From: Octopus vulgaris
Taxonomy: Eukaryota
Assembly: GCA_951406725.2 (NCBI GenBank)
Contig: OX597829.1
Span: 15,996,001-16,060,000, forward strand
DNA length: 64,000 nt
Direction of reading: 5' to 3'
Shown here: one piece after another, positions 3,224 through 62,849 of the stretch
Numbering within the stretch: position 1 is the first letter of the stretch
Layout of the letters: every line of letters begins with the position of its first letter
Position numbers and translations under genes: made by a program
Notes under the pieces: generated by a model
What the model was told of the DNA's origin: nothing
The model's database searches: none
The model's input: the letters and a program-made list of their open reading frames with translations, nothing else

Positions 3224-4127
3224 ATGCCGATGCTGACAAAGCCCTTACCCATCAATGGCTAATGGCATCTGGCTTAAAATCTGAAACAGAAGGGTTTATC
3301 ATAGCAGCTCAAGATCAATGCCTACCAACAAGAAACTACTAACCCAACATATTAAAGAACGGCAGTAGCCCAACATGTCGTGTATGCCGACAACAAAATG
3401 AAACCATTGATCATGTTGTCTCCAAGTGCAGTCTTCTTGCGCCTACAGAGTATCTTAACAGGCATGATAGAGCCACACAATTTATTCACTGGGTAATTTG
3501 CAAAAGCCTGGACTTGCCCCATGATAAAAACTGGTGGAACACAAACCACCTCCAGTGCTTGAAAATGATCACATCTCACTCCTCTGAAACTTCATTCAAA
3601 CTGAAAAAAAAAATAGATGCAAATTGGCCAGACATTATATTGAAAGACTTCAGACAAAAATCATGCCTCGTCATTGATATGACTGTCCCAATCGACATAA
3701 ACTTATCTGTCAAGACCTACCAAAAACTGAGCAAGTATAAAGATATTGAGATAGAAACTGGTAAAATGTGGAACCTGAAGACTAAAACAATACCTGTTGT
3801 CATGGGTGCCCTAGGAATGATAGCAAAAGGGCTGATTCCTTCCTAACTCAGATACCAGGAAACCTCAAAATGGCAGAAAATTGAAAGATAGTGCTCTTGG
3901 GAACTGCCCATATCCTACGTAAAATACTGTCTATGTAATCTCAAATTTTAAAACAAACTCATAATTTTCTTGTTTTCTTCAACATTCTCTAGAACAATAC
4001 TATGTGCAAAACCAAATATATGACACCCAAGGTATAACACCAACATGAACCTCTAACTTGTTGTCTCTTGTGGTCTTTGGGTGAGACTTCGTGTCAACTT
4101 GTACAAATACAAAGCAAAAGTCAAACA
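3223..4127 (+). mobile_element. R4/Dong-like RLE non-LTR retrotransposon, 3' fragment with 3' UTR
   Basis: Translates to GLKSETEGFIIAAQDQCLPTRNY, a CCHC knuckle (CRVC...ETIDHVVSKC), RHD, and the RLE motif WPDIILKD...LVIDMTVP...K..KY, with stops and frameshifts. Flanked by (CTAT)n and (TAA)n. Confidence 0.88.
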
Positions 4128-10704: not shown

Positions 10705-10890
10705 AATGTAACTACACGTGCTGTTGGCGATTTCTTTTCCTTCTTTGTGGACTTTCTCCTTTCTTCTTTTCGACGAAGATCTATGCTCGAAACGTCAAAG
10801 CCTCTCTTTCACCGAGTGTCAAGCTAATACATTCCTTGCTGTGCACGTTCTCATTAACGTTGTCCGTTAATTTCATTCGTTTATTTGAAT
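10705..10890 (+). mobile_element. PLE-like fragment with minimal hammerhead-like motif
   Basis: CTTT-TCGACGAA-GATC-TAT-GCTC-GAAA-CG-TC-AAAG at about 10766-10800. Confidence 0.55.
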
Positions 10891-10934
10891 TTTTTTTATT
10901 GATTACACACACACGCATACATACATACATACAT

Positions 10935-24130: not shown

Positions 24131-24340
24131 TAACAGGAAAGTTTACGAAAATAAACAAAAGACGAAGGCAGGTGGAATACAAACAAACAAATGTATTAGT
24201 ATAGCGCTCAGGAATAGAAATAGAAAAAGTCTTTTCCGTTTCAAGCCTACGCTCTTCGACAGAAAGATACACAGAAAAAAAACAAGGAAAGAAACAAGGA
24301 GAGAAAAAATGCGTGTAGGAACTAACGATCTATCATGGCT
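24131..24340 (-). mobile_element. Short PLE-like element with variant minimal hammerhead
   Basis: Minus strand TCTTT-CTGTCGAA-GAGC-GTAG-GCTT-GAAA-CG-GA-AAAG; its 3' end abuts (TA)n. Confidence 0.7.
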
Positions 24341-31729: not shown

Positions 31730-32510
31730 TAGTACGTCAGACAAAATGCTTAGCGGAATTTCGTCTGTCGCTACGTTCTGAGTTCAATTTCCGCTGAGGT
31801 CGATTTTGACTTTCATCCTTTCGGGGGTCGATTAAATAAGTACCAGTTACGCACTGGGGTCGATATAATCGACTTAATCCGTTTGTCTGTCCTTGTCTGT
31901 CCCCTCTATGTTTAGCCCCTTCTGGGTAGTAAAGAAATAGGTATTTCGTCTGCCATTACGTTCTGAGTTCAATTTCCGCTAAGGTCGACTTTGCCTTTCA
32001 TCCTTTCGGGGTCGATTAAATAAGTACCAGTTACGCACTGGGGTCGATATAACCGACTTAATCCGTTTGTCTGTCCTTGTTTGTCCTCTCTGTGTTTAGC
32101 CCCTTGTGAGCAGTAAAGAAATAGGTATTTCGTCGGTCTTTACGTTCCTTGTTCAAATTTCACTGAGGTCGACTTTGCCTTTCATCCTTTCGGGGTCGAT
32201 GAAATAAGTAGCAGTTGAACACTGGAGTTGATGTTATCGATTTAATACTCCCCGAATTTGCTGGCCTTGTGCCAAAATTTGAAACCATTAATGTTGTTGT
32301 TGTTGTTGTTGTTGCGGTGAACTGACAGAATCGTTAATACGCCGGGTGTTCTGAGTTCAAATTCCGCCGAGGTCGACTTTGAATTTCATCCTTTAGGGAT
32401 CAATAAATTAAGTACCAGTTGAGTACTGAGGTCAATCTAATCGACTTATCCTTCCCCCAAAATTTCGGGCCTTGTGCTTATAATAGAACAGATTGTATTA
32501 TTATTATTGA

Positions 32511-42384: not shown

Positions 42385-43830
42385 AAGTTTTATGGTTCGC
42401 CCCCCAGCCTCGCTTCTTCCTTAATGTTGGGATAAATTTAGGTAGAAGATTCTTGCACTTAATAGATATTCACTTCCCAAGAACCCATTATTACAATAAA
42501 AATCTTTAACAGACACGCAATAAAAGTTACCTTTTCTTGTCCTCCAATGTTAAGTCATATACCTATTTCTTTATTACCCACAAGGGGTTAAACACAGAGG
42601 GGACAAACAGGGTCAGGCAAACGGATTAAGTCGATTACATCGACCCCAGTGCGTAACTGGTACTTAATTTTTCGACCCCGAAAGGATGAAAGGCAAAGTC
42701 GACCTCGGCGGAATTTGAACTCATAACGTTACGACAGACGAAATACCTATGTCTTTACTACCCACAAGGGGCTAAATACAGGGGAACAAACAGGGACAGA
42801 TAAACGGATTAAGTCGATTATATCGACCCCAGTGCGTAACTGGTACTTAATTTATCGACCCCGAAAGGATGAAAGGCAAAGTCGACCACGGCGGAATTTG
42901 AACTCAGAACGCAGCGGCGGACGAAATACCGCAAAGCATTTCTCCCGGCGTGCTAACGTTTCTGCCAACTCGCCGCCTTTGTTAAGTCATATACCAGTAA
43001 GCAACGGACGGCTTTAGCCTACTCCAGCGAACTACGACTGTAGTAGAACAGATATCACACGTTATATCGGAGCCGTAGAAGGTAAATTTTAATCCAGATA
43101 TAACAACCATCCTTTTGGATTTTAAGTATCGTGATAAGAGACATTCAACAATCATTTCGGTTTTAATCTGGAAACTTAAAGACGAATAGACCAGTTTCGA
43201 CATCAAATGAAAAATCCTCTCCAAATCCAGACCCTATATAAACGAGTCAAAAATTGTTCAGTGTGTTTTCTTGAAAACTTATGTTTCTTAAAGAATTTGA
43301 GAACCTCCAACGAATAAATAAATTCGAGGAACAAGATTTTCATTTCAAGAAACACATCTTGTCAGAATTTAAAAGTAGGCTACCAGACTCTTTGTAAACC
43401 ATTAACATCTGGTTTATGTCTGCCTGACATCGAATTATTGTAACGTTGGTTATCTCTTTTGTGTTGTTCTTCTTGTCTTCATTACAGGCGTCTCTAGTTT
43501 AAATATCATCTACTCAAAAGACAACTGACAAACGGTCTTGTTTTCAATTTGATAACCGGCGAAATAAATTATTTCGACCAGGAAACCTGGGTAGTTGTAT
43601 TTACGTCACCTGATAAGGGTCCTGTACACTGGGAGATGCATCTGGTACATTTCATCGTTCCCTATCCATCAGGGAGCAGTGAAGAAGGCAACCGAAATTG
43701 TTGTTGTGCTAAATAAAGCTTTTTGTTACACTCCGTCTCCCGTATCAATCATTATTAAAATAACTGATGAAATGCCGGAGCAGACTTCAGCCCCGGCATC
43801 CGAAGCTTTGAGTTTTATTATGACAACCAA
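42385..43830 (+). mobile_element. Penelope-like element 3' part (GIY-YIG region plus terminal region with degenerate hammerheads), interrupted by a SINE dimer
   Basis: NVGINLGRRFLHLIDIHFP...IFNRHAIKVTFSC; IWKLKDE...IK*KILSKSRPY...CSVCFLE. Confidence 0.82.
42564..42979 (-). mobile_element. Family A SINE dimer with 16-bp TSD
   Basis: TSD TGTTAAGTCATATACC at 42548 and 42980. Confidence 0.93.
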
Positions 43831-43953: not shown

Positions 43954-44243
43954 TGTATGTATGTATGTATGTATGTATGTATGTATGTATGTATGAAGGC
44001 TTGTATATATGTATGTGTACATATGAATATATTCATACATATATACTGACGAAGCTTAATAAGCTAGAAATACGTTTTTGATAATGTTATCACTGCTGCT
44101 AGAAGATTTTCAACTGGTTCTGATATAAACTCGTGTTTTTTAACACTAAACATTTATACAAGATGCTTTCTCGCGATCAATACAGTAGTTTATATAACTT
44201 TCAAAATATATCTTCCTTAAGTATACTATACATATTCCTATTT

Positions 44244-44656
44244 ATTTCCTTCCCACAAGGGGCTAAACACAGAAAGGACAAACAAGGACAGACAAACGGA
44301 TTAAGTCGATTATATCGACCCCAGTGCGTAACTGGTATTTATTTAATCGACCCCGAAAGGATGAAAAGCAAAGTCGACCTCGGCGGAATTTGAACTCAGA
44401 ACGTAGCGGCAGACGAAATACCTATGTCTTTACTACCCACAAGGGTCTAAACACAGAGGGGACAAACAAGGACAGACAAGGGGATTAAGTCGATTATATC
44501 GACCCCAGTGTGTAACTGGTATTTATTTAATCGACCCCGAAAGGATGAAAGGCAAAGTCGACCTCGGCGGAATTTGAACTCAGAACGTAGCGGCAGACGA
44601 AATACCGCTAAGTATTTCGCCCGGCGTGCTAACGTTTCTGCCAGCTCGCCGCCTTA
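44244..44656 (-). mobile_element. Family A SINE dimer with 19-bp TSD
   Basis: TSD ACTATACATATTCCTATTT at 44225 and 44657. Confidence 0.93.
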
Positions 44657-54240: not shown

Positions 54241-56340
54241 ATGTCTTTTCGTCCGACGTCACTTCGTCAAATATCTTTTTGTCCACGTCATTTGGTCCGA
54301 CGTCTTTTTGTCCAATGATTCTTTTTATCCAACGAATTTTTGTCCAATTTTTTAATAAGCTCTTTCGAAAACAAGGTGAAATATCTCTAATGATATATTC
54401 ACAGAATTATAACCAGCCTCGTTATAGGATTGTTATTATCATTCTTTTTCCTTCTTTGTAAACAGTTTTACGCTTTCATTTTCCTTCTCTCTCTTAAGTA
54501 TGGTGCTGTGTACAGAGAGTGCTGCGAATTTAGTGTACACATTATTAATTTACCCATCCCGAAATGACAAAGTTCATAGCATCGACCAAAAACAAAAGAA
54601 AAGTAATTGATGAAGTGGTGAAAGATGGAAAAATGAGCTTTGAGAAGAGACAGGTAAAAGCACGTCTTGTCTTTAGGAAAGAAGTGGAAGAAAGAGAAAA
54701 CTTTATATCCTACTAAATGTGGGTATATTATAAGAAAGCCATAATACTGCAGAAAGCAATTACGATTTTCATTCAAGAAATTCAAAACTAGGAAAAGAAT
54801 GCTGAAGATGTGAGAAAAGAAAGCTGTGTTCACTGTAAATTCACACGGTAACGGAAAAGAATGAGTCGAAAATGATTTATTTTTCTAGTTAACATCTTCA
54901 TCCAGCTGATATAGATTCATTAAATGCTAGAAAAGCAGTTGCAGAAATAAAGCATGATGCTGTTAAAAACATAGCAGCAAGTTCGCGTAGCATAATAATG
55001 GCTAAGTTTACGCAGCCAGTAGAAAATACTGCGAGCTGGCAGAAACGTTAGCATGCCGGGCGAAATGCGAAACCGTATTTCGTCTGCCGTTACGTTCTGA
55101 GTTCAAATTCGACTTTGCCTTTCATCCTTTCGGGGTCGATAAATTAAGTACCAGTTACGCACTGGGGTCGATGTAATTGACTTAATCCCTTTGTCTGTCC
55201 TTGTTTGTCCCCTCTATGTTTAGCCCCTTGTGGACAATGAAGAAATAAGAAAATACTTGCTCTCAACTACCTCATTTGCATGTACTTTGAAGGACCATTC
55301 AAAGGTGCCAACAAAAACATTCTAGATTTCCCTCTAATCCAAGGGTTAGAAGTGATTTTGAAATACCTGAAGAAGATTGTAAATTTGATAATAACGAACA
55401 GCTCCTGCGATATGATTCAGGTATCGATAGCACATACTAGTATTTGCATCAGAAAGTGCTCTTCAGGATATGGCATAATATTGTCATTGGTCTTGTGATG
55501 GAACGTTCAAAATTGTGTCAGAACAGTGGTTTCGACTGTTTAGTATTCAAGTACAAGTTAAAGGGAGTAGTTTTCCATAGGTTTTTGCATTACTGCCAAA
55601 GCAGACATACAAATTATTTTTCGAGCAATTGAAAATTATGCAACCTAATGCATATCTGCTTCGTTTCATGACAGATTTTGAAGTTGCAGTTCGTTATGCA
55701 TTTAATTCATCATTCGTTAATTCATCTATCGAGGCATATTTGTTTCATTTGAGCCAATCGAAAAATTACAGGTTTAGGCCTCAAAGAAAAATACAACAAA
55801 GACTCTGAATTCTGTCTTAAAATTCGATGTTTTTTAGCATTAGCCTTCCTGCTGGTTGAAGATGTCGAAGAGGTCTATGGAGAATTAATAGACGATGAAG
55901 AAATACCTGCTTACCTCATTGCTTACTTTGACTTAACTTACATAGGTCTCGTGAGAGGATGTGATGCTAGACGAAGGAGAGAACCACCTACATTCCCAAT
56001 AGCTGTATTGAATGTTAATCAGCATATTCTTCAAGACCATCCCAGAGCAAATAATGCTGCTGAGATGTTTCATTCTGAGAGGTTTCATTCGGCAGGTGGA
56101 GCACATTTGAATATTTGGAAATTAATCAAAACTCTGAAGGAAGAGGAAGGGTTTGTTCAACGTAAAATGACTAAAATTCTTCAAGGAGATCTATCAAATT
56201 CAAGTACACGATATCAAAGAATTACTGAACGCCTCAAAAAATTGGTGATTGAATATGGGTCAACAAGAAAAATTGATTTTTTGAAGAGTGTGTCATATAA
56301 TTTGCATCAACTTTAAGCGATCGTAATAAATCATTAGTTT
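54241..56340 (+). pseudogene. Decayed Mutator (MULE) transposon with SINE insertion at 55031-55247
   Basis: ~15-bp subterminal repeats at 54241-54347; DGTFKIVSEQWFRLFSIQ, FALLPK, FMTDFEVAV, YLFHLSQS, LALAFL, YFDLTYIG, PRANNAAE; SINE TSD AGAAAATACT. Confidence 0.87.
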
Positions 56341-57698: not shown

Positions 57699-57863
57699 TA
57701 CGACAGGCTTCTTTCAGTTTCCGTCTACCAAATCCACTCACAAGGCATTGGTCGGCCCGGGGCTATATCAGAAGACACTTGCCCAAGGTACCACGCTGTG
57801 GGATTGAACCCGGAACCATGTGGTTGGTTAGCAAGCTACTTACCACACATCCACTCCTGCGCA
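57420..57863 (-). mobile_element. Full-length family B SINE
   Basis: Reverse complement of the 22514-22920 family. Confidence 0.9.
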
Positions 57864-58585
57864 TATATATTTCTAAATCTTGTACGACTCTATTTCTGTC
57901 TATCAGCCCTTTCACACTTATTCGTTCATTCCACTCTTCGTTCTTTCGTTCCCCCTCTCTCACATTTCTTTGCCTTCTCTTCTTACTCACTTCCCCCCCC
58001 CCCCCCCACTTTTCTCTTCACTGTGTCCCTGTCCTTTTTTCTCGCCCCTCCTTAATTCTTCTGTCCCGCTGCTTCTATTTCTCTTTCTTGTTTTCCCACG
58101 TGACCGGCGTTCGGCCAAGCCTGTTCTTTCTTTCTTGGTCTGACCGTTGCCCATACAACATCGATATTCTCCCCTGTGTTTGTGGAGATTTTGTATCTCT
58201 GCAGTAAGGCTTCATTTCCACACGCGCCAGCTTAATTCAACTCGTCCTTAGTCGAAACACACCAGTTGTTATGTCCTGTTATTATTTTTATTGTATTTAT
58301 ATTTGTGTAACATTGTCCGTTTTCTCCGTCCTTGTTTTTGTATGCATTCGTAGCTTTCTTCCAAGGAATCTAATGCTCTTGGCTTGGTTTTTCCTTGGGT
58401 CCGGCCAGATTGGAGCAATCTCAGGAGTAGTCAGCCAAAATTGCGGAGATAATCTGGTGCTTGACTGAGGACTGAAGGCTTCGAATGACCCGTCCTTGTT
58501 TTCTTTGTATCGTCTATCTGGATGTTTTGTTGTCCCTTTTTGAATCACCTAACTGTCCGTATGTTTTTGCATTCTTGTCCCATTT

Positions 58586-58647
<62 letters not shown>

Positions 58648-58652
<5 letters not shown>

Positions 58653-58836
58653 AGAGTTTACAAAAACAAAACAAAAGACGAAGACAGGTGGTGTACAAAA
58701 CAAACAGATGTATTAGTATAACTCTCAGGAATAGAATAAATCTTTTACGTTTCAAGCCTACGCTCTTCTACAGAAAGGGACACAGCAAAAACAAGGAGAG
58801 AAAAAAAACCTGTGTAGTGGCTAACGATCTATCATG
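58648..58836 (-). mobile_element. Short PLE-like element with variant minimal hammerhead
   Basis: Minus strand CTTT-CTGTAGAA-GAGC-GTAG-GCTT-GAAA-CG-TA-AAAG at 58741-58778; abuts (TA)n. Confidence 0.72.
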
Positions 58837-58989
58837 GCGACAGCCAGACAGAAGGGTCACACACGAGAGCGAAGAAGTAGGGGAGATAACAAAGTAAAGA
58901 TGACCCCCCACCCCAAGACGAAGGTGCGTGTGTGTATAAGAGAATATGTATGTGCGTGTGAAAGAAGGCTGGTGGCCTGGACACACACT

Positions 58990-59126
<137 letters not shown>

Positions 59127-59135
59127 GCCGTGTTG

Positions 59136-59320
59136 GATCGTTAGCCCCTACACGCAATTTTTTTCTCTCCTTGTTTCTTTTCTGTGTATCTTTCTGTCGA
59201 AGAGCGTAGACTCGAAACGTAAAAGACTTGTTTTATTTCTATTCCTGAGCACCATACTAATACATTGTTTGTTTGTACTCCACCTGCCTTCGTCTTTTGT
59301 TTATTTTCGTAAGCTTCCCG

Positions 59321-59322
<2 letters not shown>
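59136..59322 (+). mobile_element. Short PLE-like element with variant minimal hammerhead
   Basis: TCTTT-CTGTCGAA-GAG-CGTAGA-CTC-GAAA-CG-TA-AAAGA at 59189-59226; between (TA)n tracts. Confidence 0.72.

Positions 59323-60357: not shown

Positions 60358-62849
<2,492 letters not shown>

Follow-up and report, generated by a model that had tools for sequence, protein, structure and literature searches.

A lineage-wide A6-to-U core change in the pseudo-LTR hammerhead motif of an abundant Penelope-like retrotransposon of Octopus vulgaris

The short hammerhead-bearing repeats in the 64,000-nucleotide stretch of Octopus vulgaris DNA analysed in this work (the window) are 5′-truncated 3′ ends (pseudo-LTRs) of a young and very abundant Penelope-like retrotransposon that inserts at (TA)n. 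The hammerhead motif of this lineage has U instead of A at core position 6 (U6), and U6 is fixed lineage-wide in all nine subfamilies sampled. The base itself is a solid fact, and any ribozyme function is proposed here from sequence alone. We lean slightly toward the view that the motif is a slowed ribozyme still under selection and that the copied RNA is uncut, because the remainder of the motif hardly changed while U6 became fixed. In this recently active lineage a core change expected to be harmful from mutagenesis data went to fixation, and the remaining motif was nevertheless kept through nine subfamilies. The reason why Penelope elements keep hammerheads is treated as an open question in the available text of the Penelope literature cited here (PMC4209133, PMC11167929, PMC8557442), and U6 versus A6 forms a natural pair for asking whether cleavage matters.

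The focal copy (59126–59322, forward strand) is a 5′-truncated pseudo-LTR 3′ end of the C7 subfamily. It is flanked by two (TA)n runs and gave 40 scored matches of 96–100% identity in a genome search with 2,661 candidates. Its minimal type I hammerhead motif spans 59190–59225 (forward), where stem I pairs 59190–59193 with 59222–59225 (CTTT/AAAG), the core runs from C3 at 59194 to A9 at 59200 with the fixed non-canonical U6 at 59197, an extra A stands at 59201, and stem II (59202–59213) carries a private G-to-A change at 59210. GAA (59214–59216), the ACGT palindrome (59217–59220) and the cleavage-site base (59221) follow on the same strand. The second copy (58650–58982, reverse strand; motif 58742–58777) belongs to the A7 subfamily and has a C11.1-to-T change, and the third (24131–24340, reverse; motif 24231–24266) is of the C7 type with C11.1-to-T and U16.1-to-G. 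The fourth copy, of the A7 type (1511–1667, forward; motif 1560–1594), has C3-to-T, lacks one A of GAAA and contains a deletion downstream of the motif. A distant relative belonging to a sister lineage lies at 10717–10891 (forward; motif 10766–10800), with A6 kept, C4 and a 3-nt loop II. The preliminary description of this DNA had located all five stretches correctly, and stem I (CTTT/AAAG), the 8-nt linkers, GAAA, ACGT and the GUA site were confirmed. It had ascribed private lesions to two of the four copies; in fact all four have them, the focal copy at 59210 and the copy at 58648 at C11.1. The extent given for the latter was too short, as its 5′ part reaches about 58982 (about 330 bp) by comparison with longer genomic copies. 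The relative at 10766 does keep A6, as had been noted, and it fails as a canonical control, since its core reads T3-C4-G5-A6 and groups with C4 relatives. No frame of the carrier element was found inside the 64-kb window. In an Rfam scan of the window with E up to 10, the hammerhead was absent from the best 150 of 520 matches, which were microsatellite-driven miRNA and snoRNA matches.

The metazoan Penelope hammerhead consensus is CUGANGAH, in which the base between positions 9 and 10.1 is conserved, according to the available text of PMC4209133. The extra A after A9, presented at first as a non-canonical trait, is already part of this consensus; therefore the only core departure is A6-to-U, and U6 alone is new in the core. 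Stems I and II, the post-A9 base, G10.1-C11.1, the palindrome at positions 15–16, the NUH site and the lack of helix III are all those of a minimal Penelope hammerhead, and CUGANGA with A6 is missing. Descriptors that demand CUGANGA would miss the U6 motif, as had been predicted, and they undercount: two lineages of about 10,000 or more exact copies here lie mostly outside such a descriptor. The published data on position 6 concern A6C, for which low activity was reported (PMC3088659), with a strong reduction in Mg2+ and a recovery in Mn2+ (PMC7151607, available text). Furthermore, in a full pairwise scan every single or double change of the CUGA turn, apart from the 3–8 swap, gave low activity (PMC9901934, available text). 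The literature listings searched pointed to no Penelope motif with a U6 core, and one may nonetheless already be in print. None was found in one of the two supplement files of PMC4209133, the text of which reports U3-A8 as a core variant.

Copies were counted with a 31-letter pattern, matched exactly with positions 6 and 7 left free, in the 2.8-Gb genome. The whole genome held 14,734 matches to this core and none to the reversed control. Among the first 100 matches listed of the 14,734, 96 had U6, and position 7 showed all four bases, in agreement with its earlier designation as the free position. The A6 version of the pattern has 140 genomic matches, spread across all four position-7 types; this is close to the 94 matches of a control transversion (U4-to-A) in the same pattern, so that the A6 copies are probably mostly back-mutations. 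A sample independent of the core was obtained with a 3′-flank pattern (20,768 matches; the first 70 of 100 listed were fetched). In this set 61 of 70 copies cover the motif ungapped, 59 with U6 and two with A6, and the other nine are truncated or gapped. An older subfamily (2,546 matches) has U6 in 91 of 100 among the matches listed. For the oldest subfamily (320 matches), 82 U, 11 C and 7 A were counted by eye among the first 100 listed, and position 6 at 25 of its loci was U in 18, C in 2 and A in 5. Five copies had initially suggested A6 as the base of the oldest subfamily, an idea rejected by these counts; a small A6 remnant may persist there. Sixty arbitrarily placed 10-kb stretches contained eight hits of the U6 lineage (by eye), and a rough extrapolation from them gives a copy number of the order of 40,000. 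Contigs of four sequencing runs labelled as four organisms span the motif, and none has an alternative letter listed for position 6. The depth in one of these runs is restricted almost entirely to the motif; this coverage is a hint only, because the variant table omits known variants (A7; positions 7 and 17). The view that U6 is a family trait rather than decay is borne out by the 140 A6 copies against 14,734 and by 59 U against 2 A in the flank-picked set, and the same rarity of A6 speaks against a canonical consensus. U6 is probably the derived state, since the sister lineage and the published consensus both have A6.

For the conservation analysis, 198 copies were sorted into ten groups by flank motifs of our own definition, with 23 copies unassigned, and nine consensuses were compared, the flanks of which diverge by up to 35%. 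Variable columns amounted to 3 of 36 in the motif (positions 6, 7 and 17) and 31 of 82 downstream (Fisher p 0.0009), in a data set where some groups have 3–5 members, core patterns served to fetch part of the sample and columns are not independent. With the oldest subfamily corrected to U6, 2 of 36 motif columns vary (p 0.0003), and position 7 and the cleavage-site base are the sole sites of change in the 36-nt motif across the nine subfamilies. The motif is therefore less variable than its downstream flank; equal variability would have spoken against a family trait. The upstream comparison (28 of 32 columns) was not used because slippage in pyrimidine tracts inflates it. Among the subfamily consensuses all four bases occur at position 7, and either A or U at position 17. 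Such freedom at these two positions is allowed by a hammerhead and is the pattern expected of that fold. On the other hand, none of the nine subfamilies departs from GUAG in loop II, a constancy not needed for catalysis, and the conservation of the motif may fit a silent fold equally well. Stem cells are paired in 88.9%, and stem I changes from CG to GC between lineages. Covariation is thin: in the nine-row alignment one pair has a two-sided change, a value reached by 285 of 500 shuffles; the covariation score was reached by 4 of 500, with rows that are related by descent.

The carrier was identified from 5′-extended copies, which continue through a pyrimidine-rich untranslated region into a frame with a GIY-YIG domain and a reverse transcriptase (RT) on the same strand. 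Locus L201 contains an open frame of 1,076 codons from ATG, with YIDD, the linker CSRPRCRTC and CVSCSLC in the GIY-YIG core. Pfam searches with a 426-aa part gave GIY-YIG at E 0.0028 and RVT_1 at E 0.031, both below the curated cut-off, and the Atlas score was 0.98 to RT/GIY-YIG/HTH_animal clusters. The loci L204 and L206 each hold a full-length element whose two pseudo-LTRs, 4.1–4.2 kb apart, both carry U6. At L373/L374 (G000:C6:117389501-117407500) near-identical full-length elements stand head to tail with a period of about 4,470 bp and four U6 motifs. The motif sits about 780 nt ahead of the element start codon. The old subfamilies are linked to the same RT and GIY-YIG protein, and the youngest subfamily differs by 1.8% from its own consensus. 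A TATA or TACATA run lies no more than 40 nt past the 3′ anchor in 64 of the 70 flank-picked copies. A single frame of RT followed by GIY-YIG, together with pseudo-LTRs in tandem or partial-tandem structure, places the element among the EN+ Penelope elements. A CX2-5CxxC linker between RT and endonuclease defines Neptune and Nematis, as described in the available text (Craig et al., 2021; PMC8557442); CSRPRCRTC has this form, and the cysteine pair of the GIY-YIG core (CVSCSLC) is present as well. We therefore call the element Neptune-like by resemblance of the linker, with Neptune and Nematis undivided. The proposed affiliation with Penelope-like elements was upheld, and the autonomous element with this terminus was identified. 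The idea of an independent mini-element was not, as the repeats are truncated copies with a preferred 5′ boundary.

The sister Penelope-end lineage has 9,983 exact matches, with A6 and a variable 3-nt loop II. Among the first 100 listed, position 4 was C in 66, U in 32 and A in 2 (by eye), and G occupies position 17 in four, all with U4. Some of the U4 copies may reflect CpG decay, and others look like a canonical older branch. This lineage was further sampled at loci L316–L340, and a deleted copy of it seems to precede the 1511 copy directly in the window (about 1448–1500). A third hammerhead-core family, with a different stem I and a longer stem II, occurs at L012 (about 2131, reverse), L050 (about 8354, forward) and L220, and its core is canonical in L012 and L220. 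A distant, second frame of Penelope-type RT and GIY-YIG was met in the random sample (L055, 5052–6328), with 29% identity to the focal protein. The window also holds a different pyrimidine-rich repeat (57861–58590, forward), which ends in (TA)n and is arranged tail to tail with the copy at 58648. Copies of this repeat have in common CTGANGA (N variable), followed by a short hairpin and GAAT, and are possibly hammerhead-like. Two open stretches of 497 and 185 codons in 60798–62849 (reverse) presumably encode a LINE-type reverse transcriptase, judging by motifs in their translation. Frames of 167 and 187 codons (3343–3846 and 55753–56316, both forward) resemble pieces of other mobile-element proteins. 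A tandem unit of 183–184 bp is present in 2–2.5 copies at each of 31758–32216, 42559–42930 and 44237–44606, the first array being oriented opposite to the other two.

New here, besides the core base, are the upstream 5′ boundary of the short copies and the tandem units that rejoin at the same upstream point. On a cut template, copying that begins downstream would be expected to stop at position 17, and it does not. The 5′ end is at the cleavage site in 1 of 70 flank-picked copies and in 2 of 29 distinct loci matched by a targeted pattern (by eye, among the first 100 of 1,039 rows listed). Furthermore, 66 of 164 copies cross the internal junction between pseudo-LTR and 5′ UTR; the motif is found upstream in 63 of these, in two cases as part of a neighbouring copy, and none of the visible rows of the 66 stops at the cleavage site. 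The early impression from two cases that copies pile up at the cleavage site was rejected by these three counts. Contigs of four runs presumed to be RNA gave neither ends nor joints, and such contigs would bear no mark of cleavage. Instead, 5′ ends cluster 55–85 nt upstream of C3, around CGCCATG, a zone that covers 59126–59145 (forward) in the focal copy and would mark the 5′ end of the transcript. Across 107 copies the stop rate per nucleotide is 0.031–0.049 in the 20-nt CGCCATG zone, 0.010–0.015 just downstream and 0.002–0.003 far upstream, and 58 flank-picked copies gave a profile of the same shape. The best 30 matches to the focal copy, which are selected for query coverage, include 28 that end between −5 and +10 of CGCCATG. 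Microhomology with (TA)n may add to this peak, since the boundary lies in an ATG/ATAG-rich stretch.

At eight loci, 5′-UTR nucleotides 245–310 are joined directly to the pseudo-LTR. Four of these short-unit loci rejoin at −71 or −72 from C3 with four different UTR break points, and four repeat their unit. L371 (G000:C8:18599001-18604500) has five 492-nt units, each with the U6 motif, plus an inverted 5′ piece, and L372 (G000:C2:121323501-121326500) has a 468-nt tandem unit with the U6 motif. The tandem units of 447–492 nt (L371, L372, also L355 and L359) consist of the pseudo-LTR end and the first 245–293 nt of the 5′ UTR. Short noncoding tandem units with one hammerhead each, the trait of non-LTR retrozymes, were seen in L371 and L372 only, and the window copies are single. 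Because short copies end upstream of the core and tandem units rejoin there, the copied RNA is likely uncut, and the genomic record appears to favour an uncut template over efficient cleavage. Read-through of the site would also be left by a circular template that was cleaved and then religated. At the scale of a whole genome, the 5′-end map supports internal priming on uncut RNA, and it suggests a possible origin of retrozymes.

We hypothesize that transcription starts in the 5′ pseudo-LTR about 55–85 nt before the core, and that reverse transcription is primed about 100 nt past the cleavage site, close to an ATATAT located just after the pseudo-LTR of the template. It would usually run off at the RNA 5′ end and leave copies of 190–210 bp, and occasional jumps from the RNA 5′ end to the RNA 3′ end would generate the tandem units of 450–490 nt. 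U6 may lower the cleavage rate enough to spare both template and message, and the core could be kept under selection by infrequent cleavage that a dimer or a protein assists, for example when read-through yields multimers.

The main rival reading, of lower probability, is that the motif does not cleave at all and that its RNA fold or sequence is bound by an element protein, for packaging or for placing the RT start about 100 nt downstream. The lack of a pile-up at the cleavage site and the invariance of loop II and both stems within the lineage are consistent with such a fold. Moreover, C4 in 66 of the first 100 sister-lineage copies listed would be a second independent hit on the CUGA turn, and anole catalytic mutants insert normally in vitro (PMC11167929, available text). 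In nearest-neighbour folding with short flanks, U6 is predicted to favour an inactive monomer helix (U4-G5-U6 with A-C-G), with pair probabilities of 0.27–0.90 for U6 and 0.00–0.21 for A6. However, this helix weakens with longer flanks in six of eight subfamilies, and the folding models as a whole add little: no z-score was significant, the double hammerhead lies 8–15 kcal/mol above the best two-strand fold with either base, and with 25-nt flanks the motif remains the dominant fold in the youngest subfamily alone. The free position 7, the non-G position 17, the intact G8 and G12 and the dimer palindrome form the pattern of a catalytic fold, and A6C and U4C variants retain some function elsewhere. 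More tentatively still, the hammerhead could have turned into a docking fold without cleavage, the mini-elements being strong-stop-like cDNAs of the uncut transcript 5′ end and the tandem units products of cleavage-free template jumping; if true, this would cover tens of thousands of 200-bp “mini-elements”.

We regard it as improbable that U6 is competent in vivo through a protein, dimer geometry or a metal ion, with religated circles and rolling-circle copying that erases the cut site. The units of 492 nt (L371) and 468 nt (L372) and the head-to-tail full-length elements do resemble rolling-circle products, and both protein-assisted cleavage (PMC11167929) and the rescue of A6C by Mn2+ (PMC7151607) are described in the available text of those papers. 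However, a circle made by the ribozyme would have no end 55–85 nt upstream of the core, where most short copies stop, and four of the eight short-unit loci rejoin at one upstream nucleotide despite their different break points. The available text of the mutational scan also gives no second-site rescue inside the CUGA turn (PMC9901934). A dead, hitchhiking U6 in a segment conserved by chance or as a promoter or other DNA-level signal is very improbable: although the segment lies shortly downstream of the putative transcription start and some very successful Penelope clades are without hammerheads (PMC8557442, available text), the sole variable positions are those that the hammerhead leaves free, stem I covaries between lineages, and in the third family a canonical core is enclosed by other stems.

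The comparisons below refer to the available text of each source. The Penelope hammerheads of Cervera and de la Peña (2014; PMC4209133) share with the octopus motif the pseudo-LTR site, the 4-bp stem I, G10.1-C11.1, the post-A9 base, the absence of helix III, the palindrome after GAA and the NUH site, and their elements likewise occur as thousands of truncated single copies; U6 throughout the lineage is the difference. Neptune and Nematis (PMC8557442) have the same single frame of RT with C-terminal GIY-YIG, CX2-5CxxC linker, microsatellite target and partial-tandem structure, whereas long pyrimidine-rich untranslated regions flank the frame on both sides here. The phage Bcep176 A6C hammerhead (PMC3088659, PMC7151607) is also a natural position-6 change, but it represents a single phage locus with C and not U, and measurements showed low cleavage in Mg2+ and more efficient cleavage in Mn2+. 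Animal non-LTR retrozymes derive from Penelope pseudo-LTRs (Li et al., 2026; bioRxiv 10.64898/2026.07.22.740005) and share with L371 and L372 the short noncoding tandem units with one hammerhead each; the octopus units differ in having U6 and a fixed joint upstream of the motif, and a handful were seen. The run-off part of the slowed-ribozyme reading preferred here parallels the anole Poseidon element (Frangieh et al., 2024; PMC11167929), in which RT starts internally, downstream of the hammerhead, uncut RNA is the dominant template and cleavage-site ends are absent. Cleavage by the anole hammerhead requires protein, and insertion in vitro does not depend on the hammerhead. Its core overlaps the start codon and its protein-dependent cleavage has been demonstrated, whereas the octopus motif lies far upstream of the start codon; and priming in anole is non-homologous to the target, whereas the putative priming site ATATAT here would match (TA)n.
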